The notes below the pieces were generated by a model. The model searched no databases, was not told the DNA's origin, and saw nothing but the letters and a program-made list of their open reading frames with translations. From Escherichia phage LAMP: a DNA stretch of 64,000 nt. How positions within the stretch are numbered: the first letter of the stretch is position 1; each line of letters opens with the position of its first letter. Shown here piece by piece: positions 1,382 to 63,156 of the stretch. The position numbers and the translations under genes are program-made. The stretch lies in sequence record MG673519.1, one strand, 5' to 3'.

Positions 1382-2466
1382 TGCCACAAGATAATTATAT
1401 TGACCCGAACGATTTTAAATCTTTCCTCCAACTGGATGACCTGAAGGGTTCTTTCAAAGAAGAACTTGGTCGATTAGAATCTGAACAAGAACCAGAAGTG
1501 GACATTGACGATGAGTTCCCGGAAAAAGACGGTGACGATTTCGACTTTGATACCGACCTTCTCGGTGAAAGCAATGAGCTTAAGTTCGAAGATGAAGATG
1601 GTTGGGAAGATCGTGATGAGGAAGGCGAAGTCGAAGAAGATGGGGACAACTCTGACGAAGGTGATGAAAACGCTGAAGTAGAAGAGGAAGACTCAAGCGA
1701 TGCAGGATATGAAGATGATTCTGCTGACGGTGAAGGTGAAGTCTTTGATGTAGACTATGAAACCGTTATCACCCTTCCTGATGGACGTGAGATGACTATT
1801 GAAGAACTCTCCAATGGCTATCTTACTGGTGCTGATATGGCTGAACGTGAGACTACTCTTCAGCGTCACATGGAAGCATTTGAGGAACGTGTAGTAGGTT
1901 TGAAGGATGTATTAGAATTAGCGTCTTTAGAAGCAGACCGAGTAATTGAAGATTACAACGGTTTTGATTGGGACAAGCTTGCAGTAGAAGATCCTCAAGC
2001 ATATGTTGAAAACAAACGTTTCCTAGAGAAGTATACAGCTCGTCGTAACCAGCTTGAACAGGCTCAGATCCGTATTAAGCAGGAAGCAGCAGCTAAAGAG
2101 CAGGAAGCTTTCCAAGCCAAGAGCATTGAATGTGTTAATATTCTGAAACGTGAGATTCCAAATTGGGATGAAAACTTATATCAAAACTTAATGCAATACG
2201 CAATTGACTTAGGTGCTACTGAAGAAGAAGTATTGAAGGAAAACCGTCCGTCTATTTTCCTAGCCCTTCACAAAGCATACCAATTTGATAAAGGTAAGCA
2301 GCAGGTGATGGCTAAGATTAAACGTCCCGGTGCTCCACGCAAGGTTGTGAAGTCTGATGCTGCAAAGTCTCGCACTTCCAATAAGCCAGACAACGCTAAG
2401 GTTGCCAAGGCATTCGCAGAGGGTCGCGTTAGTCACGAAGACGCATTCAAATTCCTCGTAGATTAA
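1381..2466 (+). CDS. putative scaffolding protein with highly acidic N-terminal region
   Basis: Position directly upstream of capsid gene; long D/E-rich tract followed by helical region. Confidence 0.5.
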   Translation: MPQDNYIDPNDFKSFLQLDDLKGSFKEELGRLESEQEPEVDIDDEFPEKDGDDFDFDTDLLGESNELKFEDEDGWEDRDEEGEVEEDGDNSDEGDENAEVEEEDSSDAGYEDDSADGEGEVFDVDYETVITLPDGREMTIEELSNGYLTGADMAERETTLQRHMEAFEERVVGLKDVLELASLEADRVIEDYNGFDWDKLAVEDPQAYVENKRFLEKYTARRNQLEQAQIRIKQEAAAKEQEAFQAKSIECVNILKREIPNWDENLYQNLMQYAIDLGATEEEVLKENRPSIFLALHKAYQFDKGKQQVMAKIKRPGAPRKVVKSDAAKSRTSNKPDNAKVAKAFAEGRVSHEDAFKFLVD

Positions 2467-2507
2467 TCGACAAATTAATTATTTAATAGTATAGGAGCTA
2501 ACATAAC

Positions 2508-3569
2508 ATGGCTAATCCAACTTTATTTGTATCGTATGACCAGAATGGTAAAAAACTTTCTTTTGCTAACTGGATTTCTGTTCTGTCCCCTCAGGATACC
2601 CCGTTCGTATCTATGACCGGTAAAGAGTCTATCAACCAGACTATCTTTAGCTGGCAGACCGATGCATTGGCAAGCGTTGACGCTAATAACGCACACGTTG
2701 AAGGTTCTCGTGCGGTTGATGGTGAAATGCAACCTACCGTAATTAAATCCAACGTTACTCAGATTCTGCGTAAGGTTGTTAAAGTTTCTGATACCGCTAA
2801 CACCACCGCTAACTACGGTCGTGGTCGTGAACTGATGTATCAGCTGGAGAAGAAAGGTAAAGAGATCAAGCGTGACCTCGAGAAAATCCTTCTGTCCGGT
2901 CAAGCTCGTACCGATGTTCTGGCTGACCAATACCTGACTAACTCCGCAACTGATCCTGCAGCTGTTGGTCTGAACGACACCCACGCAGCTCGTAAGACTG
3001 GTGCTTTCCAGTTCCTGTGTGCACACAACGGTGTTTCTGCTGGTGTTGTTAAGAAAGAAAATGGCCCTGCTGATCCGGATACTGGTGCAGTAACTGTTAA
3101 AGTTGCACAGAATGCTTCTAACCCGACCACTAACGTTGGTTTTGATGAAGCTGATATCTTTGATATGACTCTGCAACTGTACACTGCTGGTTCTGAAGCA
3201 GATATCATCATGATCAACCCTGCTCATGCTAAGATCTTCGCTGGTCTGCAAGAAAACACTCAGGGTTCACGTAAGCGTATCTTTGAGAACACCAAGCAGT
3301 TCATCTACGAAGTTAACAGCATCACTGACCCGCTGGGCCAGAACTACAAAATCATCGTTAACCGTTGGATGCCTACCGATGCAGTTTACTTCTTCCGTAG
3401 CGCTGACTGGACTCAGATGGTCCTGCGTGCTCCGAAACGTACTGAACTGGCAAAAGATGGTTCTTATGAGAAGTGGATGATTGAAATGGAAGTTGGTCTG
3501 CGTCACCGCAACCCTTATGCTTCCGGAGTTCTGTTCACTGCTGCGGGAAAGTTGGATCCGCAACAGTAG
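2508..3569 (+). CDS. major capsid protein
   Basis: 353-aa ORF with strong RBS (aggag) after scaffold gene, followed by a strong terminator; position and composition typical of an HK97-fold capsid. Confidence 0.8.
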   Translation: MANPTLFVSYDQNGKKLSFANWISVLSPQDTPFVSMTGKESINQTIFSWQTDALASVDANNAHVEGSRAVDGEMQPTVIKSNVTQILRKVVKVSDTANTTANYGRGRELMYQLEKKGKEIKRDLEKILLSGQARTDVLADQYLTNSATDPAAVGLNDTHAARKTGAFQFLCAHNGVSAGVVKKENGPADPDTGAVTVKVAQNASNPTTNVGFDEADIFDMTLQLYTAGSEADIIMINPAHAKIFAGLQENTQGSRKRIFENTKQFIYEVNSITDPLGQNYKIIVNRWMPTDAVYFFRSADWTQMVLRAPKRTELAKDGSYEKWMIEMEVGLRHRNPYASGVLFTAAGKLDPQQ

Positions 3570-4087
3570 ACAGTGTGACTGTTAGCCCTGCGTCTGTAGA
3601 AAGTCTAGAGACAGGGGCTACTCAGCAGTTTACTGCAAGCGCTGAGAAGAGTGACGGTTCTACCGAAACAACTGGCTTTACTTGGTCAGTAACAGGAGGC
3701 GGTTCTATCACTCAGTCTGGTTTGTATACTGCTCCGAGTGCGGCTCAATCCACTGATGTATCCATTACTGCGACTTTAGAGGGTGTTTCTGGTACAGCAA
3801 CCATTTCTGAAATTGTTGATCCTACCCCTACTATTGTAGCTAAGGGTCCAATTACAGGTAAAACTGGTGGTTCTTCCACTAACTTCACTACCATGTTTAC
3901 TGTAACTAATTCTACTGCTGCGGATTACACGTTTGTTGTAACCCCTGCAGAAGCTGGTACAGTAAGCGCTGCTGGTGCGTTAACCTTAGATGATGCTGCA
4001 AGTGGCGAAGTTACTGTTCAAGCAAGTTTGACAGCTGACCCGTCCATCAATGCAACATGCACTTTTACTGGTGTAACACCTGCTTAA
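2508..4087 (+). CDS. C-terminally extended capsid protein made by programmed -1 frameshift, carrying an Ig-like (BIG2-type) domain
   Basis: -1 frame is open from 3485 to 4087 with no RBS or ATG; slippery heptamer G_GGA_AAG at 3545-3551 in the capsid frame; extension begins TVSPASVESLETGATQQFTASAEKSDGS. Confidence 0.6.
3545..3551 (+). other. candidate -1 ribosomal frameshift slippery site (G GGA AAG)
   Basis: X_XXY_YYZ heptamer 19 nt upstream of the capsid stop codon, with the -1 frame open on both sides. Confidence 0.55.
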
Positions 4088-4094
4088 AACTAGA

Positions 4095-4118
4095 CCCTGC
4101 CTTCGGGCGGGGTTTTTT
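4095..4118 (+). terminator. rho-independent terminator after capsid gene
   Basis: Hairpin ccctgcc-ttcg-ggcgggg followed by TTTTTT. Confidence 0.75.
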
Positions 4119-4146
4119 CGTTTTAAGACCTATACAAGCCAGTGTG

Positions 4147-4155
4147 TAATGTATA
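4147..4155 (+). promoter_or_regulatory. TAATGTATA motif, candidate phage-specific promoter element
   Basis: Exact 9-mer 34 nt upstream of the 4189 start; same 9-mer recurs upstream of other genes on both strands. Confidence 0.45.
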
Positions 4156-4188
4156 TTCTTTGTCTACATATAACAAGGAGGACAACCT

Positions 4189-4941
4189 ATGGCAATGCCA
4201 GATGTTCAATACCCCATCAATACCTATGGGTGGCTAAAGAAGGCCGTGGCCCTCTGGGCAGATAGGGACGATGACGAATTTGTTAATCAAATTCCAAACT
4301 TTATTAACTTTGCAGAGAAAGAGATTTATCGTAACTTACGCATCCCTCCTCTGGAAAAAGAAGTGTATTTAGATATTAAAGATGGAGTAGCTTACATTCC
4401 TCCTGATTACTTAGAAGCTCAATGGATGATGAGAGCCAAAGATGGTACAATCTTCCAAGTAACATCTCCTGAAGAGATTAGCTATCGTAGACAGCATGGA
4501 ACAATTAATCCATCTCATTGGAATAACCAACCTGTTAACTTTGCTCGTTTCGGCAGTCGTTTCATTTTCTACCCTAGCATCGAAGCAGACACTCCGTACT
4601 ATCCTGATGATGGAAGTCCTTTGATTCCAGCAGAAAACTCAGTGATTCTTAGTTATTATGCAGACCCACCGGAGTTTCATGAAGATACAGACACTAGTGC
4701 TATTCTTACTATCGCACCAGAGCTTCTTCTGTATTTCACCCTACGTCATGCTTGTCTGTTTGTTCAAGATGATAACGGTGTTCAGAAATGGTCAGCATTA
4801 GGAAAAGCTATCCTTGATGAAATGGTAGAACAGAATAAGAAACAAGAGTACTCAGGTTCACCTATCGCAATTCCGAATAACATGACTCGACTTCAGAGCA
4901 GCTTGCCTGATATTTATGGTATTCGTACTTCTCGTGTATAA
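4189..4941 (+). CDS. virion structural protein (putative adaptor or tail protein)
   Basis: 250-aa ORF with strong RBS, between capsid and tail fiber genes. Confidence 0.4.
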   Translation: MAMPDVQYPINTYGWLKKAVALWADRDDDEFVNQIPNFINFAEKEIYRNLRIPPLEKEVYLDIKDGVAYIPPDYLEAQWMMRAKDGTIFQVTSPEEISYRRQHGTINPSHWNNQPVNFARFGSRFIFYPSIEADTPYYPDDGSPLIPAENSVILSYYADPPEFHEDTDTSAILTIAPELLLYFTLRHACLFVQDDNGVQKWSALGKAILDEMVEQNKKQEYSGSPIAIPNNMTRLQSSLPDIYGIRTSRV

Positions 4942-4950
4942 GGAGATAAT

Positions 4951-7900
4951 ATGATCGTTTATAATAACCAAGCACCTGATGCAGTGAATAACGTTGGGCA
5001 GTTTGGTGCTACTGAAGGCTCTATTGGAGCTTATAAGCAAGCAGCAGAGTATGCAGCTGACTCTAAATATTGGGCACTGTTAGCAGAATCTAAGTTTGGT
5101 ACAATTGATGACTTGATCGCTGAAGTAGAGCGTTTGTATCAGCAAGGTGTTCTGATGAAGCAGGATATCGAAGATCTTAAGCAGGACTTTAGAGATCAAG
5201 ATGCTCGTCTGATGAGTTTGATTGCTCAAACTAACGCAGCAGTCTCTGATGCTAACAATGCTGTTGCTTTAATCAATCAGAAACTTATTGAGGTTCAGAA
5301 TCAGCTTGACGTTCTGTTAGGAATGTCCGTTGATGTAACCACACTCCCTCCGGGAACTCCGGCTACTGGCTCTTTTAATCCTAACACTGGTGCAATATCT
5401 CTGGGTATCCCAGAAGGTGATCCCGGAAAGGATGGTTCTGTTAAGGATTTGGATACAGCACCAACTGGTGTTCCTGTTCTTGGTGATGTAGGCTTCTATG
5501 TTGATAAAGATGATAACACCGTTCACAAAACATCTTTAGAGAATATTGCAAACCTTATCCCATCCGTTCGTTCTATCTCTGTAAACGGCGGTCCTTCTGA
5601 GAGTGGTGAAGTTGCTCTAACTCTTGACAAAAGCACTGTTGGGCTAAGTAATGTAGAGAACGTGGCTTCTTATAGTAAAGAAGTTGTTGATAACAAAGTT
5701 GATGGTTTTATTAAAACATACAGCTCTAAAGCTGAAGCGGATGCGGATGCCGTTAATCGTGAGGCTGGAGAAACTGTTCTTGTTTGGGAAGACACTCAGT
5801 ATGTATTCTATAAAGTAGCTGCTGATAAGATTTTAGATTTGGATAAAACTGAACCTCGTGTCATCACTGTTAACTCCCGCATTCCAGATTCCAGCGGTAA
5901 CATCGACATTACCATCCCTACAGGAAACCCCTCTCTGTATCTTGGTGAATTGCTCATGTTCCCATATGACCCATCTCGTCCTATCTCTTATCCGGGGATT
6001 TTACCTGCTGACGGTCGTTTGGTCTCTAAAGACTTAGCTAGTGATTTGGGTGCTTCTTTGGTAAGCGGTCAACTTCCTGTTGTATCAGAGACAGAGTGGC
6101 AGGCAGGTGCTAAGCAATATTATTCTTGGGGTAAATTAGCTGATGGCTTGACCGATGCAGATTCTACCAACTATATTAACATACGTCTTCCTGATTGGAC
6201 TGGTGGTGAAGCTATTAGATCTCCTAGCTTAACTGGAGATACTTCTTATGACGGTAAACCAATAGATCAGAAACCTTATATTGTTACTATTAACGGAATC
6301 TCCCCTAATGATATCACAGGAAACGTCAACATAACAGCTGCAAACATAGGAGCTTTGGCTAAGTCTGGTGGTATCATGGATGGAAACTTGGTCCTTAACA
6401 AAGCCGTAGCTTTACGCAGAATAAAGGACAATGACACTCAAGTTAACATGGTATCAAGGAGTGATTCTGATGATTCTGTGCTTGGTGACCATTTAGCTAA
6501 AACTGTTATTGCCTCCTCAGAGACTCCTATCTTCTCTAAACCGGATGGGGATTATAAATTTTATACAGAGGATAATAAACCTACGAACGTTGATGTTGGT
6601 GCTGCTGGTATTGATGTTAATGGGGTTAACTCCGACATTAAAACTTTTACACAGAAAGTAACATTCCAGCAACCGGTTACAGTAGCAGATGCAGTTGGGG
6701 ATTATGATGCAGTTACCTTACGTCAGCTGAGAAACCAAGGCGGTGGCGGTGGTGGTCCTACGATGAACGGTATCTCCAACTTTAACATTGGTGATTTCCG
6801 TCTTGTTGATAGCCGTGCCTTTATTCAAGCAAATGATGTAGTGTCTGACGGTCAGTTACTGAATCGGGCAGATTGGCCTGAACTTTGGGCTTATGCTCAG
6901 ATGTTGTCTCCGATAACTGATTCCGAGTGGCTGGCGACACCTTCCAAACGTGGTCGGTATTCACTAGGTGATGGGGCTACGACTTTCCGTGTGCCAGACA
7001 GGAACGGCGTTCAGGCAGGCTCTATTAACGAATTATTTGGACGCGGTGATGGTGGGGTATCCTCTGCTGCGGGTGATGTATTCGAAAACGGCGCGCCGAA
7101 TATCACAGGGTCGTTCAGAGGATATACATACGTCAACAACAATCCAAATGGCGCATTTACGTTTGCAGCCACCAGCACAAACGTTGTTAACACGACAAGT
7201 GGAACAGACACAAACACACAATATGGAGTATTCAATTTCGGCGCTGACAAATCAAATGCCGCTTACGGACGCTCGTCAAAGGTGCGGCCAGATTGCTTTG
7301 TCGGTGTTTGGGTGATTCGTGCATCTGGCGGCTTCGTGGCGGCGAATACGCAATGGTCTGTTATTAATAGCGATGACATAAGACCGTCGGACGGTACAAC
7401 CGTTACAGGTGGCAACTTGATATCCGATTATAGGGTTGGCACAGAGTCAGAAGGCTCAGCTGAATTCAAAATGCAAGGCACTGTTGGTGGTTCATACTCT
7501 GCAAGAATTGGAGTTTATAACAAAACTTCTTCAAACGGTACAACTTTTGATTTCACTGAAGCTGGGAATATAGAGACTCCTAGGGGTCGTGTTTTGGTGA
7601 AGGGTGATTATGGTGTTGGTGTTCAGGGTGGTACAGTGCTACCTGCTTCTAACTATAACCAGTTCATAACAGACTCAGATGGTAATTCGCCGTGGGCAGC
7701 TGCAAATGGGGGAGGTTTCCAAACTTCTTATGCCGTAAACAGAATCTGCCAGTTTTGGATAAGCTTGAATGGTTCGGCTTATGTTAGAACTAACACCATA
7801 AACAACAATCCAAAAGAACTCAAAACCAACCTTCCGTGGACAACTCTTCAGAATGCTGGAACCTCTGACGCGAATGTTAAAGATATTGGTGATGATTTGG

Positions 7901-8196: not shown

Positions 8197-10332
8197 ATGT
8201 CTAGAGAATTAATGCCTAAATCCGGTATAATGATGCCACATGTAGTGGTTAACCGAGATGCTGCGGTAGTAGGTGTCTCCACTGTAGACGGAGTGGCTGG
8301 TGCAATTGATCTTACTGGTAAGTATCTACAGAAAACAGATGCGTCAGCTACCTATCAAACAAAAACTGAAGGTGCTTCTAAGACTTATGTTTTAGATTCT
8401 ATTCAACCTATCATGGAAGGTGCTTTATTTAAAGCTGACCCTTTCGTAGATAACAACGTCCCTTTCCGTTCCGCTGGGGCTAATGGTGTAGAGTCTGTGG
8501 ATATGATGAAAGTCACCACTGATAACTCAATCAAGATTGGTAGTTATGCTTCCTCAGTTCAAGGAGTAGAGATTCATTCTGCTGGTCGTGTTCAGGTTGT
8601 TGACCAGAATGACGGTGGTGTAGAAACTAAATATCCTATCTATTCTAAGCGTTTCCGTCCTGAGATTGAAGATTTACCTTTTGCTGCAATCGGTTCTTAT
8701 GTTAAGGATTCTCAAGGTCGTACCATTGGAGTAAATCGAACTGGTATCAACTCTGATATCAAACAGTTTACTCAGAAAGTAACTTTCTCTGAACCAGTTA
8801 CTGTTCCTGATGCTGTTGGTGATTATGATGCTGTTACACTAAGACAGCTTCGTAACAGTGGTGGAGGTTCTGGTGGTCCTACCATGAGCGGTATCTCCAA
8901 CTTTGGTATTGGTGATTTCCATCTTCGTGATAGTCGTGCTTTTATCCCAGCTTTTGAAGTAACCTCTGATGGACAGCTTCTCAGTCGTTCAGAGTATCCA
9001 GACCTTTGGGCTTATGCTCAACTGTTGACACCTATCTCGGATGCTGATTGGTTGGCTGATCCTCAGAAACGTGGTAAATACTCAACAGGTGATGGTTCTA
9101 CTACTTTCCGTGTCCCTGACCGAAATGGTGTCCAATCAGGTTCAATTAAAGAGTTGTTTGGGAGAGGGGACGGAGGATCTTCCTCTACCGCAGGTACCAT
9201 ATATGAAGCAGCAGCGCCAGACATTGGAGGGGCAGCAGCTGGCGTATCTCAAGGTACTTATGCGCAAATTTTTGGTACAGCAGTAAGAGGTGCGTTTTTC
9301 ACAGATAACGGACTGTATCCTCAAGGAGCTGGTGAAACAATACCGGGTGGTACTGGTGCAACTGAAGGTCGTCAGAATACTCTGAATTTCCTAGCAAGTA
9401 GATCTAATGCTACTTATGGGAGATACGGTGTTTCAGATAACATCCTCCCTCGTAACTTCATCGGTGTTTGGACCATCCGTGCTCATGGTGGGTTCGTAGC
9501 TGCTAATACTTCTTGGTCTGTTATTAACGGCGACACGTCAATGCCACCTTCCGGAGTTTCAGTAGACGGTGGTTACATACGTAGTGTGTACAATGTGGCC
9601 GGTTCTCCGGTAGCAGAGTTCGCTGTCCGAGCGGTTGCAAACTCTAACGGTTATTATGCCAGAGCGTACACGAGAAACCATACTGACAACACGTCGGGGT
9701 ACTTTGATTTCCATGAGAATGGAGAGTTCGCTGCGGCTGAGTTCCGTGGTCAAAGAATTACCTTGAATGATAATAACTGGCCGGGAGTGGTGATGAAGCC
9801 TTTTTCGGCTAACCCATCTGCTCTCGGTGGTGTCACTCTTATCGAATCCAACATTGGAGCCGCTGCTAGTGATGTCTCCCGTGTGAGTCTGATTAGACGG
9901 AGGGTTGACGGTGTTACAGGTTCGATTACCGTTGGTTTTCCGCAGACAGCAGGTACTCTGGCTCTCCAAGGTACTTCTGGCATCAATTTTAAGAAGGATA
10001 TTGTTGATGCTGATGCTAATGAAGCACTCGATAGAATCACCAACCAGCGTTTGGTCAACTTTGTCTATAAAGATGATGAGCAAGAACGTGTTCGATTCGG
10101 TGTTATTGCTGAAGAAGCAGAGTTAATTGCACCGCAATACATCAAACACAATCAGGAATCTTACGAGGACATTCTTGACGAAGAAGGGAATAAGATTGGC
10201 GAGAAGACAAGGGACAGACCTTCCGTCGACGTCAACCCAATCGTCATGGATTTGATGGGGTGTGTTCAGGCGCTGACTAAAAGGATTGAGGCGATGGAAG
10301 CCGAGATTGCTGAACTCAAATCTAACAAGTGA
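8197..10332 (+). CDS. tail fiber protein 2 (paralog of fiber 1) with tail-collar-like module and C-terminal chaperone domain
   Basis: 711 aa; shares a long central module and the C-terminal chaperone-like domain with the 4951-8157 product. Confidence 0.75.
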   Translation: MSRELMPKSGIMMPHVVVNRDAAVVGVSTVDGVAGAIDLTGKYLQKTDASATYQTKTEGASKTYVLDSIQPIMEGALFKADPFVDNNVPFRSAGANGVESVDMMKVTTDNSIKIGSYASSVQGVEIHSAGRVQVVDQNDGGVETKYPIYSKRFRPEIEDLPFAAIGSYVKDSQGRTIGVNRTGINSDIKQFTQKVTFSEPVTVPDAVGDYDAVTLRQLRNSGGGSGGPTMSGISNFGIGDFHLRDSRAFIPAFEVTSDGQLLSRSEYPDLWAYAQLLTPISDADWLADPQKRGKYSTGDGSTTFRVPDRNGVQSGSIKELFGRGDGGSSSTAGTIYEAAAPDIGGAAAGVSQGTYAQIFGTAVRGAFFTDNGLYPQGAGETIPGGTGATEGRQNTLNFLASRSNATYGRYGVSDNILPRNFIGVWTIRAHGGFVAANTSWSVINGDTSMPPSGVSVDGGYIRSVYNVAGSPVAEFAVRAVANSNGYYARAYTRNHTDNTSGYFDFHENGEFAAAEFRGQRITLNDNNWPGVVMKPFSANPSALGGVTLIESNIGAAASDVSRVSLIRRRVDGVTGSITVGFPQTAGTLALQGTSGINFKKDIVDADANEALDRITNQRLVNFVYKDDEQERVRFGVIAEEAELIAPQYIKHNQESYEDILDEEGNKIGEKTRDRPSVDVNPIVMDLMGCVQALTKRIEAMEAEIAELKSNK

Positions 10333-16065: not shown

Positions 16066-17100
16066 ATGGCATATGGAATATGGACAACACCAGTCGGACC
16101 GGGACCAGCTTCTCCGGCTGAACTTTTTATCGACAGCAACACAACTTTCCCACAACTTAAGAATAGAGTCAGTGGCAATTTTGCATTTAACGGCAAAACT
16201 TGTGATCTCCCAATAAATGGGTGGGACGGAAGTGGTCAAATAGTTATTGTACCAACAGGGTCTGTTGTGTGGGAGAGATATATACCACCTAACGTAACTT
16301 CGGATGTATATTGGATAGATAATATCTCAGTTATCAATAACTCCACTTTCAGAGTTACTATGGACTATAATGTTAATGGGTGGATATTTGACATGGCTTT
16401 TAATGTGTATCAAATATGGCCTAGAGCTAATAGAAACTACGGGATTACTTTTTCTAACACAGCTGATTACTTCTCTATCTCTGACTCAGGTACTGTCGGT
16501 CAGTGCATTTGGGCTTGGGAGGGTACTATAAATAGCTCTATGCAGATACCTGCTATTAGTGGATTTGATATGAGTAGGGCCACTGTATTTGCGAACTGGA
16601 GTAATGGGAGTGCTGGATTGCTTTATAACCCCTCCAACAGAACTGTGTATGTGTATCAGAATAGGTCTCACAATAATGGAAACACAAACCAGACAGGCTC
16701 TATTAGTGGTGTTAGGATTGCGGTATTTTGTGATGGGTCTAGTGTCCCTACTCATAATGGGGGTTTAAATATTTACTCTCCTAATGGGTCTCAGTGTGTA
16801 TTCTCTACTTACAGAACCCCGTTTATGGTAGATCGTTTTATGCCTATGAGTGGTGGGAATACATCTCTGACGTATCCAATGATACCTCTTTCTTATGGAG
16901 CTGGTGCTATACGGGGGAGCGCTAGTGGTTGGTATTTTCAGCACACAAGATCTCACACAATGAACGGGTCTTCTTTTGGAACAGGATATGGAAGAATGAT
17001 ATATTCGTGGTCTAATCAGTACGATCTCGGTGGTGGGGGTTCTCTAGGGTTAAGTATTCCGGTATTAGACGCCAAGAAGATTTTTAGAAGCATACAATAA
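16066..17100 (+). CDS. virion structural protein
   Basis: 344-aa ORF coupled to upstream gene; Asn/Ser/Thr/Gly-rich. Confidence 0.4.
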   Translation: MAYGIWTTPVGPGPASPAELFIDSNTTFPQLKNRVSGNFAFNGKTCDLPINGWDGSGQIVIVPTGSVVWERYIPPNVTSDVYWIDNISVINNSTFRVTMDYNVNGWIFDMAFNVYQIWPRANRNYGITFSNTADYFSISDSGTVGQCIWAWEGTINSSMQIPAISGFDMSRATVFANWSNGSAGLLYNPSNRTVYVYQNRSHNNGNTNQTGSISGVRIAVFCDGSSVPTHNGGLNIYSPNGSQCVFSTYRTPFMVDRFMPMSGGNTSLTYPMIPLSYGAGAIRGSASGWYFQHTRSHTMNGSSFGTGYGRMIYSWSNQYDLGGGGSLGLSIPVLDAKKIFRSIQ

Positions 17101-31940: not shown

Positions 31941-32422
31941 TTAGTGTGTATGCATCCAGTTTAACCCAATCTGACAATCAGAAGCCAGAGGACATTCCAT
32001 GTTCAAGTACTCACCAGCCTTCTTAACACAAAGCTCGGTGTACTCTTTGAGTTTCTGTACATCATTACGGTTCACTGAGAACTGGCCCTCATCGTGCATA
32101 TCAATTACCTTAGCACAACGAACTCCATCTTTCTCAATCCACTTGTTAAGGAACATCATAGCATATTTCATAACAACAGCACCAGCACATTGTAGGAGTG
32201 TGTTAAGGGCTTTATGAACCATAACCTTACCAGTGGCATCCCGTCTCATTGTAATCTTACGACCATCAACGCCAATCAAATACCCTTGAGCAGCTTTCTC
32301 TGTCATACGATCAATGAGGATTGCAATACAAGGATTCTCTGCCAAGAAGCGTGCTCGCATCACTGAACCTTCGTCAGCTCCACCACCTACGATTGAACCA
32401 AGCTTAGCATCACCTGCCCCAT
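31941..32422 (-). CDS. DNA polymerase (family A, T7 gp5-like), exon 2
   Basis: Frame open upstream of the annotated Met and encodes GAGDAKLG (motif B continuation); contains motif C VIDMHDE. Confidence 0.8.
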
Positions 32423-32726
32423 CAATAGTTCAAGCAAAGGCGCTACTCTTTGCTCCGTTCTCTTATGAACTGCTTACAGTTTCCTGTAAGATCGGACTAT
32501 ATCTTCATCTCCACCTTTACGTGCTGAGAGACAGGCGCTTCCGTAACACTTGTTACGTACTCCCTTCCGGGATAGTCTCTGAACTTTCCGTGACACAAAC
32601 TTTTCTACATAGATCATTGATGTTTATGTCACGGCTTAGCTGCTGATTGGCATATCTTTCGACTTAGCTTTCCAGCAATTCACCTGTTTTGCTTCTGCAC
32701 ATTTCTATGCAGTGAACCAATTATTT
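32423..32726 (-). mobile_element. group I intron (about 304 nt, no ORF) interrupting the DNA polymerase gene
   Basis: Exon 1 stops one codon after TFIYAFN; joining 32727 to 32422 restores NYGAGDAKLG; 5' exon ends in U, intron ends in G, GGUU near intron 5' end can pair with exon AACU. Confidence 0.7.
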
Positions 32727-34089
32727 AGTTAAAGGCATATATAAACGTCTTCGCATTATCACGAGTAGGAAGACCAGCAAGTTTCTGGTTGTGGGAGTGG
32801 ATATCACCTTCAAGAAGGATATCACGATACATAATAGCAGAAGCTAAACCACGTTCTGCCAGAGCTTTCTTAGCTGGATTATTCTCTTCGATTGCTTCAG
32901 CAAGCATATCCCTACACTCTTTAATGAGGTAGTGAGCGAGCATACGAAGTTCAAGTCCAGAACCATCATACCCTAAGAATACTTCTTTACCAGCGGGTAT
33001 GTAATATTTGTAAGCACCTACAGGCTTATCTTTCTTCCCCGGCTTACCTTTCTCGTAAATTACGTTAGTACCTTTTCGTATATAACAACCATCAGGAACA
33101 ACGTTAGTAATAACGAAAGGACGAGAGTGATCACTGTCTGAATTATAGTCAGACTCAAACAAACTGCGACACTCATGACCAAACAAACCACGGGAGGGAA
33201 TATTAACCACGATACGATGTTTGAATCGAAAAGTTGGCGTAGCGCAGCTGTTAGCTTCTGCCGAAAGTTTACCATCTTCGCGTTCCTTTGCTATGAGTCC
33301 ACTGATAAGACCTAGCCTGTGAGCCGCTACAACGCGCCTCTTAAGCAAACTTCCAACACTCCCTAGCTCGCCCCCTAACCCTTCTTCAAGAGTCTCCTCG
33401 AGGTTTGTAGGAGCTGTAGGCCACTTGTTTGAGGTAGCTAGTGCTATCTTAATCTCATCAAACGTGATAGGTCTACGTCGGTTAGGGTTTAAACCTAAAC
33501 CAAACACATAAGCCTTCATATAGTTCTTAGTCTTAAACCTAAAATGCTTCTCTAAGAACCTCCTAATATCTGCGTCAACCATCTCGGCTGTCTGCTTCTG
33601 TTTAGCATTACCTCGCATCCAAGCTGAATACCACGCTTGGTATGTTCCATACTTTCGTATATCTTTCTTGATTTCAAAAGTATTCCAAGGTTTCTTTGAT
33701 ACGTTAAACTCTGGAGGAAGAAAACCCTCATCCATAAGGGCTTCTTTAACTCGTGCATCTTTCGATGGGTCAAAGTCCACGTATTCAACACAGGTGAATG
33801 CTCCACCAATGTCTTCTCTCTTAAGGCCAACTCTATCACAATAGGCTTGAGGCCACTTCTGTAAAGCTCCAGACTTCTTAAATGGCTTCATATAAGTAGA
33901 GCCATCTAGTCTCATCTTAGGTAAGAGAGGGATCAGTTCTTTGTCGATATTAACAATAATCTCTTTAAGGAGGTGAACATACCACCGAGCATTTCTTCGG
34001 TTGAAACTCACTCCGTGCTTCGCTTGCTTAGAGATTATATCAGCGACAGTCATCTCTGTCAAAAATGGGAGAGCGTCCGGGTTGCTCAC
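32727..34089 (-). CDS. DNA polymerase (family A, T7 gp5-like), exon 1 (polymerase domain)
   Basis: Motif A GYDGSGLELRMLAH and motif B RDNAKTFIYAFN; colinear with T7 DNA polymerase from the end of its exonuclease domain. Confidence 0.85.
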
Positions 34090-56849: not shown

Positions 56850-56925
56850 TGGTGCGCCCTACAGGATTTGAACCTGTAACCAATAGCTTAGAAGGCTACT
56901 GCTCTATCCATTGAGCTAAGAGCGC
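56850..56925 (-). tRNA. tRNA-Arg(UCU): tRNA-Arg, anticodon UCU, CCA encoded
   Basis: Hand-folded cloverleaf: 7-bp acceptor stem, D-arm GCTC/GAGC, anticodon loop CTTCTAA, 5-nt variable loop, T-arm ACAGG-TTCAAAT-CCTGT, discriminator A, CCA. Confidence 0.9.
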
Positions 56926-62877: not shown

Positions 62878-63156
62878 ATACTTTTTCAAGTATTTTTCAC
62901 TTTCTAGCCTACTTTTTAAAGAGCGGGGCAATTTCTTGCCTTGTATGTTTTACATCGTACCCGATGGAAATGAGTATACGCGAGCCTTCAGAAAGTGCAA
63001 TAGGGGAAAGCAAATTATTTTAAACTTTTTCACTATAGGGAAGATAGAAGAGCGAGCGAACGTGATACACCATAGAAAACGGCTTGTAAAGCGATAAGAA
63101 ACGGCCTAAAACGCGCTACAGCGAGCTAAAAGGGGATAAGGTATACAATCACCTTA

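Follow-up and report, generated by a model that had tools for sequence, protein, structure and literature searches.

How is the open reading frame (ORF) behind the major capsid gene translated, given that it begins in another frame and seems to lack a start of its own? The 64-kb stretch of DNA analysed here (the window) carries this locus in a region of a phiEco32-like (Kuravirus-like, Gordonclarkvirinae) E. coli podophage, with identities over 1.8 kb of 99.4% to Bas92 and 94.9% to phiEco32. As in phiEco32 and SU10, the gene order is portal, small ORF, scaffold, capsid, Ig ORF and adaptor, and SU10_portal and SU10_adaptor Pfam matches lie on either side of the capsid/Ig region. The capsid protein matches the Pfam family SU10_MCP (PF17236; 263 bits, E 5e-78, model positions 7-289 of 292, gathering cutoff 24.1) and the solved SU10 capsid structure 7z45 (E 8e-225). 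An earlier note on this DNA had proposed a programmed -1 ribosomal frameshift, and an in-register heptamer, an open -1 frame without a start signal, conservation and an Ig-like fold all support that reading. Hence, we consider it very probable that a programmed -1 ribosomal frameshift in the capsid gene appends Ig-like domains to a minority of the subunits. The features involved are listed in Table 1.

Table 1. Features of the capsid and Ig region, in window coordinates.
Feature	Position	Strand	Basis or detail
Capsid-gene Shine-Dalgarno sequence, AGGAG	2493..2497	+	Anti-SD duplex of -6.5 kcal/mol upstream of ATG 2508
Major capsid protein, zero-frame product (HK97 fold, SU10 type)	2508..3569	+	ATG 2508 to TAG 3567-3569; 353 aa, 38.9 kDa
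Slippery heptamer G_GGA_AAG	3545..3551	+	Zero-frame codons GCG GGA AAG
-1 frame extension	3551..4087	+	178 codons plus TAA; G3551 read twice
Candidate hairpin 1, ACAGU...ACUGU, holding the zero-frame TAG	3563..3582	+	RNAalifold consensus
Ig-like domain 1 (Big_2-like)	3563..3808	+	AlphaFold2; approximately residues 5-86 of the extension
Candidate hairpin 2, UAGCCCU...GGGGCUA enclosing GUCUG...GAGAC	3583..3620	+	RNAalifold and covariation
Ig-like domain 2 (second beta-sandwich)	3824..4084	+	Model and structure search; approximately residues 92-178 of the extension
Intrinsic terminator, directly 3' of the extension	4092..4125	+	10-pair stem with 6 G-C pairs, then a T run

The Ig ORF lies in the -1 frame of the capsid gene, as the earlier note had it: this frame is open from 3485, directly after a TGA, to 4084, ends with the stop codon at 4085-4087, overlaps the last 28 capsid codons and continues for 172 codons beyond the capsid stop. 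GGGAAAG is likewise present where it had been reported, and the zero-frame codons GCG GGA AAG place it in the register G_GGA_AAG, a site that is highly shift-prone in E. coli [PMC5009743]. The distance to the capsid stop had been given as 19 nt and has to be corrected, as 15 nt (five codons, TTG GAT CCG CAA CAG) separate the heptamer from TAG. Only three copies of GGGAAAG occur on the two strands of the window, and neither the copy at 63004 (+), which is overlapped only by short ORFs of 50-53 aa, nor the one at 16151 (-) is among the in-register X_XXY_YYZ heptamers found by scanning window ORFs of at least 100 aa. Among the 46 heptamers of that scan, the one at 3545-3551 alone opens a long -1 ORF (178 codons; the next best opens 30). 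The predicted fused CDS, join(2508..3551,3551..4087), encodes 526 aa with a mass of 55.7 kDa, and a predicted tryptic peptide of the fusion, VGSATVDSVTVSPASVESLETGATQQFTASAEK, begins right after the lysine of the slip site and upstream of GTG 3575.

We propose that most ribosomes would read 2508-3569 and release the 353-aa capsid protein, while a minority, with GGA and AAG of the heptamer in the P and A sites, would slip back by one base as tRNA-Gly and tRNA-Lys re-pair with GGG instead of GGA and with AAA instead of AAG. The slipped ribosomes would read the -1 frame to 4087 and yield a 526-aa protein composed of capsid residues 1-348, then a short linker and two Ig-like domains in tandem. This extended form would co-assemble with the short form, so that a fraction of the subunits would show Ig-like domains outside the prolate head, where these domains might have a weak adhesive role. 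The AGGAG sequence upstream of the capsid gene is the only ribosome entry site for both products. On the + strand, no promoter-like site was found between the capsid ORF and the Ig ORF, and the intrinsic terminator follows only after the extension, so that the capsid gene and the extension end one transcription unit; terminators are annotated at the equivalent place in SU10 and Paul. The SU10 head contains 715 capsid subunits. By analogy, the slippage efficiency may lie between about 3.5%, as in the lambda G-T system with its identical heptamer (Xu et al. 2004), and about 10%, as in T7 and T3, both values as cited in [PMC9965538], which would amount to some 25-70 extended subunits in each head.

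The extension had been described as having the character of a single BIG2 Ig-like domain. The Ig-like fold stands, as an AlphaFold2 model of high confidence (pLDDT 96.9) and a structural match to LigA show, but the model contains two such domains rather than one. In Foldseek searches, the best PDB match of the extension is the tandem Big_2 region of Leptospira LigA (8gyr, E 1.9e-11, 24% identity), with further matches to the phi29 capsid protein (8f2n_E, 28% identity over 100 columns) and to the 585-aa head protein of Salmonella phage 7-11. Among viral proteins, its closest structural match is the frameshifted capsid protein of phage Paul (894 aa). At the sequence level, the extension itself scores below the gathering threshold of Pfam Big_2 (PF02368; 17.7 bits vs 22.8, E 0.0035), with no hit at E <= 0.001. 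In total, 32 homologues of the extension were found; in a homologue alignment with 25 members, 17 match Big_2 at E <= 0.001, the best of them at E 6.5e-31. Relatives hold one to several further domains at the position of domain 2.

The GTG codon present at 3575 invites a different reading, namely that 3575-4087 is a separate gene encoding a free 170-aa Ig-like protein, perhaps a non-covalent decoration of the capsid. The ORF has its own CDS in the GenBank records of Bas92, phiEco32 and SU10, and in the SU10 cryo-EM paper gp10 is considered a minor capsid protein that may be loosely bound [PMC9509320]. We nevertheless regard a separate gene as highly improbable. As claimed in the earlier note, neither an ATG nor a Shine-Dalgarno sequence was found for this ORF; early in the -1 ORF, GTG 3575 and TTG 3722 are the sole start codons, with anti-SD energies of -0.5 and +0.8 kcal/mol, whereas the neighbouring late-module ORFs on the + strand reach -6.5 to -12.9 kcal/mol at their best in-frame starts. 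The GTG is not conserved (relatives have ATA or GTA there), and gene callers place scattered, artificial starts across the homologues, up to about 25 codons further in, which would truncate the first beta-strands. Even at the annotated GTG, the first strand of Ig domain 1 (extension residues 6-12, VDSVTVS) would be cut, since it begins upstream of that codon. The stretch between the heptamer and the GTG remains open in the -1 frame in relatives, with indels of 3 nt only (multiples of three between heptamer and Ig domain), and the heptamer is invariant in register, both of which speak against independent initiation. Also, mass-spectrometry reports of fused products exist for relatives [PMC4281155,PMC7881722].

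A coincidental heptamer in front of a decaying, unexpressed Ig remnant, as apparently found in the deposited SU10 sequence, deserves even less credence. There, a 1-nt insertion closes the -1 frame seven codons beyond the stop, so that the extension appears dispensable, at least in the laboratory; SU10 is viable despite this indel [PMC9965538], its capsid map lacks Ig density [PMC9509320], and neither the cryo-EM map nor SDS-PAGE revealed the extended form ([PMC9509320], as discussed in [PMC9965538]), the insertion and the missing form also counting against the frameshift reading. If real, the insertion, at about 8,400-8,450 of SU10, would account for the disagreement between the 2014 mass-spectrometry and 2022 cryo-EM results. 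However, GGGAAAG together with a -1 ORF of 172-267 codons past the capsid stop is kept in all Kuravirus-like loci examined except SU10, with the ORF intact in each, and the heptamer is identical in register in every Kuravirus-like relative examined as well as in Proteus phage Privateer. The well-folded model of both domains also argues against a remnant, as does the diversification of the extension by whole extra domains rather than by decay. Distant lineages retain the arrangement with different heptamers, C_CCA_AAA in PJNS034 and L024 and G_GTA_AAG in Aeromonas-type contigs, each at the equivalent position and leading into Ig-type domains, or have, in its place, another capsid paralog that carries Ig domains as an in-frame fusion. 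The least probable route to a fusion is another form of recoding, either slippage of RNA polymerase during transcription or ribosomes that read through or bypass the TAG, for which nothing specific speaks, the two-product outcome alone fitting any of these mechanisms. No homopolymer at the site is longer than A3/G3, which is too short for known transcriptional slippage, and read-through of the TAG cannot reach the Ig ORF, which lies in the -1 frame and not in the zero frame. The site itself, in contrast, is one of the most shift-prone heptamers of E. coli [PMC5009743], in keeping with a ribosomal frameshift.

If ribosomes do shift at this site, the RNA downstream of it may contribute. The two candidate hairpins begin 11 nt 3' of the heptamer, the usual spacing being 5-9 nt. 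The arms of hairpin 1 are invariant in 18 relatives while its loop varies. For hairpin 2, the pair 3595/3609 (alignment positions 60-74) is U-A in nine sequences, A-U in five and G-C in four; because its 3' base falls on the second position of a codon, these changes alter the amino acid (E/Q/L/P), and the inner stem stays paired through such substitutions. In this hairpin, 98.9% of cells are paired, compared with 25-46% when the partner is slid. Covariation across 3563-3620 is limited, with three pairs showing double changes, and none of 500 shuffles matched the observed covariation score. As a stable element, the segment 3552-3600, which holds hairpin 1, was rejected, its fold being no better than that of shuffles (z -0.09); the 101-nt context folds at z -3.46, and only this context and the comparative data give a signal. 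Three other candidates were also dismissed. GGAG at 3525-3528, considered as an SD-like stimulator, is located 16 nt 5' of the heptamer and reads GGCG or GGTG in relatives. A long-range stem predicted by RNAalifold, which would pair the heptamer itself (3540-3547 with approximately 3621-3629), is unsupported because its columns are almost all invariant and two sequences break the pairing. The stem-loop proposed for SU10, with the heptamer in its loop [PMC4281155], needs GGCGGCGG after the heptamer, where the window has TTGGATCC instead.

From these comparisons, we hypothesize that the two hairpins may stimulate the shift and thereby set its rate in Kuravirus-like phages, and the pair has possibly not been described previously. 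Taken more widely, the SU10-type capsid family may form a natural series of answers to a single requirement, a constant minority of Ig-bearing capsid subunits, which would be satisfied in three interchangeable ways, by different slippery sites with their own downstream hairpins, by a duplicated capsid gene with in-frame Ig domains, or by loss of the extension. The joint reading, with the hairpins as stimulator and the capsids as a three-way series, is tentative and perhaps rather doubtful as a whole.

Ig-like domains added by frameshifting are known from the capsid proteins of phage T3, phage A2 and Listeria phages. Ig-like extensions produced by frameshifting are a recurring theme in phages [PMC5009743]. 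For the group considered here, SU10 has been reported to use slippage at GGGAAAG to produce forms of 38.5 and 55.4 kDa, both found by mass spectrometry [PMC4281155], two bands were seen on SDS-PAGE for Privateer and supported by mass spectrometry [PMC7881722], and the frameshift has been described for YF01 and the whole Kuravirus-like group [PMC9965538]. The fused product of phiEco32 appears as a citation in [PMC4281155,PMC7881722] and in the GenBank entry of Paul, which gives a joined CDS with the note 'Frameshift at GGGAAAG; Frameshift in PhiEco32 major capsid protein product as well'. Published accounts of the frameshift thus already exist for phiEco32, SU10, Paul, Privateer and YF01, and the present case is a re-discovery; a literature search on Bas92 returned nothing relevant. 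The separate 'Ig domain' CDS in the records of Bas92, phiEco32 and SU10 is almost certainly out of date, with no free-standing protein behind it, and the joined CDS given above is the correct annotation in the window. This is relevant to capsid proteomics, to the reading of cryo-EM maps and to the engineering of capsid display on E. coli phages that are therapeutic candidates, as the natural extension at the C-terminus identifies a site that is permissive for low-copy display. A comparison of frameshift, paralog and loss across lineages could also provide a small model of stoichiometry control for minor capsid subunits in phages.

The closest known systems are the capsid isoforms of other Kuravirus-like phages (phiEco32 gp11-gp12, Paul, YF01 and SU10), in which GGGAAAG is found at homologous codons, the shift is in the -1 direction, the Ig-like extension is homologous (62-92% identity) and the terminator position is the same as here. 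In the Bas92-94 lineage, which includes the window, the five codons after the heptamer are TTGGATCCGCAACAG, compared with GGTGGCGGCG, so that the zero-frame C-terminus is KLDPQQ and not KVAA. The extension has two domains in the window, whereas Paul and YF01 have about 540 extra residues, and the -1 frame is closed only in the deposited SU10 sequence and not in the window. Proteus phage Privateer (Grimontviridae) likewise combines an SU10-type capsid protein with GGGAAAG and a -1 Ig extension (I-set plus Big_2), is annotated as a joined CDS, and had its minor capsid form detected by mass spectrometry [PMC7881722]. However, its capsid identity is 57%, its heptamer lies directly against the stop codon and its Ig domains belong to other Pfam families. 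In T3 and T7, a -1 shift near the 3' end of the capsid gene (10A-10B) similarly gives a minor, longer subunit that co-assembles, and the extension of T3 gene 10 is Ig-like, as in the present case [PMC5009743,PMC9965538]. T3 and T7 differ in their unrelated capsid sequence family and their shift site (G_GUU_UUC in T7); T7 also needs a distant 3' element, and its extension is short and not Ig-like. The lambda G/G-T system uses the identical G_GGA_AAG on E. coli ribosomes at a low, fixed product ratio, given as about 3.5% where it is cited in [PMC9965538], but this is a tail chaperone gene whose long product is not in the virion and has no Ig domain. Finally, gp8 of phi29 and, in Salmonella phages 7-11 and SE131, the long capsid paralog resemble the predicted fusion in carrying a C-terminal Big_2-type domain on an HK97-fold capsid protein, with SE131 encoding short and long SU10-type capsid paralogs that are 73% identical. 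In contrast to the window, none of the three uses recoding; the phi29 domain is present on every subunit, and in 7-11 and SE131 the ratio is set by two genes and not by one slippery site.

Megablast of positions 2400-4200 matched 125 phage records, led by Escherichia phage JacquesWildberger_Bas92 (99.4%), with Bas93 and Bas94 ranking next; phiEco32, SU10 and further Kuravirus-like podophages came after them at ~95%. Proteins encoded around the capsid region match the Pfam families SU10_portal, SU10_MCP and SU10_adaptor and hence, together with the megablast result, show that the site is part of the late structural module of an E. coli phage that is phiEco32-like and has a prolate head. The earlier note had read the end of the major capsid gene as a programmed -1 frameshift, and this reading is correct, as indicated by an in-register heptamer, an open -1 ORF, the lack of an initiation signal and conservation among relatives. 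Its account of the open -1 frame and the heptamer was confirmed from the sequence, the zero-frame codons placing G_GGA_AAG in the canonical register; the distance to the capsid stop, given as 19 nt, is actually 15 nt. GGGAAAG occurs three times in the window, counting both strands. A scan of all window ORFs of at least 100 aa returned 46 in-register X_XXY_YYZ heptamers. The one in the capsid gene opens a 178-codon -1 ORF reaching 172 codons beyond the zero-frame stop, and the runner-up opens 30 codons, terminating within its own gene. A crude uniform-composition estimate for the same ORFs predicts ~73 heptamers, and the lower count may reflect selection against slippery sites that arise by accident.

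Features of the LAMP window and of capsid gene pairs in relatives
Feature	Position	Strand	Remarks
Major capsid ORF	ATG 2508 to TAG 3567-3569	+	353 aa, 38.9 kDa
-1 frame ORF	3575-4087	+	capsid gene's -1 frame; open from 3485, directly after TGA
Slippery heptamer GGGAAAG	3545-3551	+	zero-frame codons GCG GGA AAG
Fused CDS	join(2508..3551,3551..4087)	+	526 aa, 55.7 kDa, predicted from slip at heptamer
Hairpin 1	3563-3582		predicted
Hairpin 2	3583-3620		predicted
Strong intrinsic terminator	4092-4115 plus T run	+	directly 3' of extension
Group I intron, complete	32473-32736	-	Rfam RF00028, 100.8 bits
Intron-flanking ORFs	32725-34089 and 31941-32363	-	intron between them
tRNA-Arg (anticodon TCT), single	56850-56925	-	ARAGORN and Rfam
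SE131 (L016) capsid genes	1985-2923 and 3001-4761		73% identical paralogs
A24 (L017) capsid genes	2992-3930 and 4011-5096

The closest records annotate the extension separately as an 'Ig domain containing protein', which needs correcting. As the earlier note had stated, the -1 ORF has neither an ATG nor an RBS: its only early start codons, GTG 3575 and TTG 3722, have anti-SD duplex energies of -0.5 and +0.8 kcal/mol, compared with -6.5 to -12.9 kcal/mol for the best in-frame starts of neighbouring + strand late-module ORFs, and no promoter-like site was found on the + strand between the capsid ORF and the -1 ORF. The GTG is not conserved, being ATA or GTA in relatives, and gene callers scatter the homologues' starts, some ~25 codons further in. 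In the structural model the annotated GTG falls inside the first beta-strand, VDSVTVS, which starts three residues before it.

Among relatives from IMG/VR, GenBank and metagenomes, the identical heptamer is found in the same register at every Kuravirus-like locus, including phiEco32, NJ01-like phages, KBNP1711, Paul, TH42, Bas88, E20-1, EK010, SU7 and several Logan/ENA contigs. From heptamer to Ig domain, lengths differ by multiples of three, as expected for translation of this segment in the -1 frame, and the -1 ORF continues 172-267 codons past the capsid stop in all of these loci except SU10. In SU10 (KM044272, 2672-2690), a 1-nt insertion (GACACTGTCTACTG versus GACAGTGT-GACTG in all other relatives) shuts the -1 frame 7 codons past the stop, as also noted in [PMC9965538], and makes hairpin 1 a near-perfect 11-bp palindrome. 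The insertion may explain why a 55.4-kDa form was found by mass spectrometry (2014) and none by cryo-EM (2022); it may just as well have arisen by mutation of the stock or through an error in sequencing. More distantly, GGGAAAG abuts the stop codon in Proteus phage Privateer (57% capsid identity), where a joined CDS is annotated. In Escherichia phage PJNS034 (41%; 3885-3891) and a 100-kb metagenome contig (L024, 50%; 2016-2022), the corresponding position, a few codons short of the stop, is occupied by C_CCA_AAA, followed by -1 ORFs of 130 codons with Ig-type Pfam matches and 197 codons with sub-threshold Pfam matches only, respectively. The metagenome contig carries another capsid paralog further downstream. 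Capsid genes of the IMG/VR Aeromonas-type contigs L009-L011 end in the non-canonical G_GTA_AAG GCG TAA (~3912-3945), with a -1 ORF of 167-169 codons encoding two Big_2 domains; a G+C-rich hairpin, GCGCCC-CUAC-GGGCGU, begins 6 nt past AAG, and another long hairpin (z -4.9) lies beyond it. These contigs probably use a variant shift site aided by a classic stimulator.

In LAMP, two adjacent downstream hairpins were predicted by RNAalifold with 14 and then 18 relatives. Their cells are paired in 98.9% of cases versus 25-46% with slid partners, none of 500 shuffles reaches the observed covariation score, and the inner pair 3595/3609 is U-A, A-U or G-C among relatives, its 3' base being a second codon position at which the exchange alters the amino acid. 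This evidence is limited: hairpin columns are mostly invariant, and the double changes go back to a small number of events. The spacer from the heptamer is 11 nt, shuffled sequences fold as well as the short segment 3552-3600, and phiEco32-type sequences can form a longer version of hairpin 1, spacer included, at the expense of the outer stem of hairpin 2. The hairpins may therefore stimulate frameshifting, as a possibility.

The extension was described in the earlier note as one BIG2 Ig-like domain; its Ig-like character holds, but there are two domains. It scores 17.7 bits against Pfam Big_2, below the 22.8 cutoff, and 17 of the 25 members of its homologue alignment match at E <= 0.001. An AlphaFold2 model built on this alignment (mean pLDDT 96.9) shows two domains, both all-beta, that span roughly residues 5-86 and 92-178. 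By Foldseek, Leptospira LigA has the closest fold, in its tandem Big_2 segment (E 1.9e-11), and the phi29 capsid protein, which bears a Big_2 domain, is also matched. Of the viral models, the frameshifted capsid protein of phage Paul (894 aa) comes nearest, and the head protein of phage 7-11 (585 aa) is matched as well. Relatives carry extra domains at the middle or end, indicating that the extension is modular, and the Ig-type Pfam families vary between distant lineages (Big_2, I-set/Ig_3). In the Kuravirus-like Logan/ENA contigs L020-L022, two genes (2773-3492 and 3594-4106) lie between extension and adaptor gene, a 239-aa ORF with a sub-threshold collagen-repeat match and an HNH_3 endonuclease gene.

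Salmonella phage SE131, Cronobacter phage A24 and locus L013 lack a slippery site and have adjacent short and long SU10-type capsid genes, with Big_2 domains fused in-frame on the long one. Here, gene duplication serves in place of frameshifting, an alternative of which we found no mention in the cited papers. That differing molecular routes lead to one end product argues, from sequence comparison, for selection of the extended subunit. A 124-kb IMG/VR contig (L014, 413-3931) has three SU10-type capsid paralogs in tandem, the last ending in A_AAA_AAG with a -1 ORF of merely 40 codons.

Elsewhere in the window, the DNA polymerase gene seems to be split by a group I intron, since the intron lies between two ORFs of which the downstream one matches the Pfam family DNA_pol_A at the family's C-terminal end; no Pfam match was obtained for the upstream one. 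The Bas92 polymerase is a single uninterrupted 1845-nt CDS, so LAMP is unlike Bas92 at this locus.

Of the mechanism, the sequence itself demonstrates the slippery site, its frame and that initiation signals are lacking. The lambda G-T site is also G_GGA_AAG, a heptamer among the most shift-prone on E. coli ribosomes [PMC5009743]. Efficiencies of ~3.5% for lambda G-T and ~10% for T7/T3 have been cited [PMC9965538], and we infer by analogy that slippage in LAMP is similar; if the head holds 715 capsid subunits, as that of SU10 does [PMC9509320], tens of subunits per virion would bear Ig domains. The downstream hairpins may be a minor undescribed lead, and so may the way SU10-type capsid genes alternate between frameshift, paralog and loss; the capsid frameshift itself has been described before. 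GGGAAAG slippage 'as in phage phiEco32' and capsid forms of 38.5 and 55.4 kDa were reported with the SU10 genome [PMC4281155], and in the GenBank record of phage Paul the CDS is joined and carries the note 'Frameshift at GGGAAAG'. For Privateer, two capsid bands and mass-spectrometry detection were reported, and both products were stated to be seen in phiEco32 and SU10 [PMC7881722]. The YF01 paper treats the Kuravirus-like group as a whole, describing the shift site and an Ig-like -1 extension, and also accounts for the missing long form in SU10 [PMC9965538], and frameshift-appended Ig-like domains on phage structural proteins have been reviewed as a general theme [PMC5009743].
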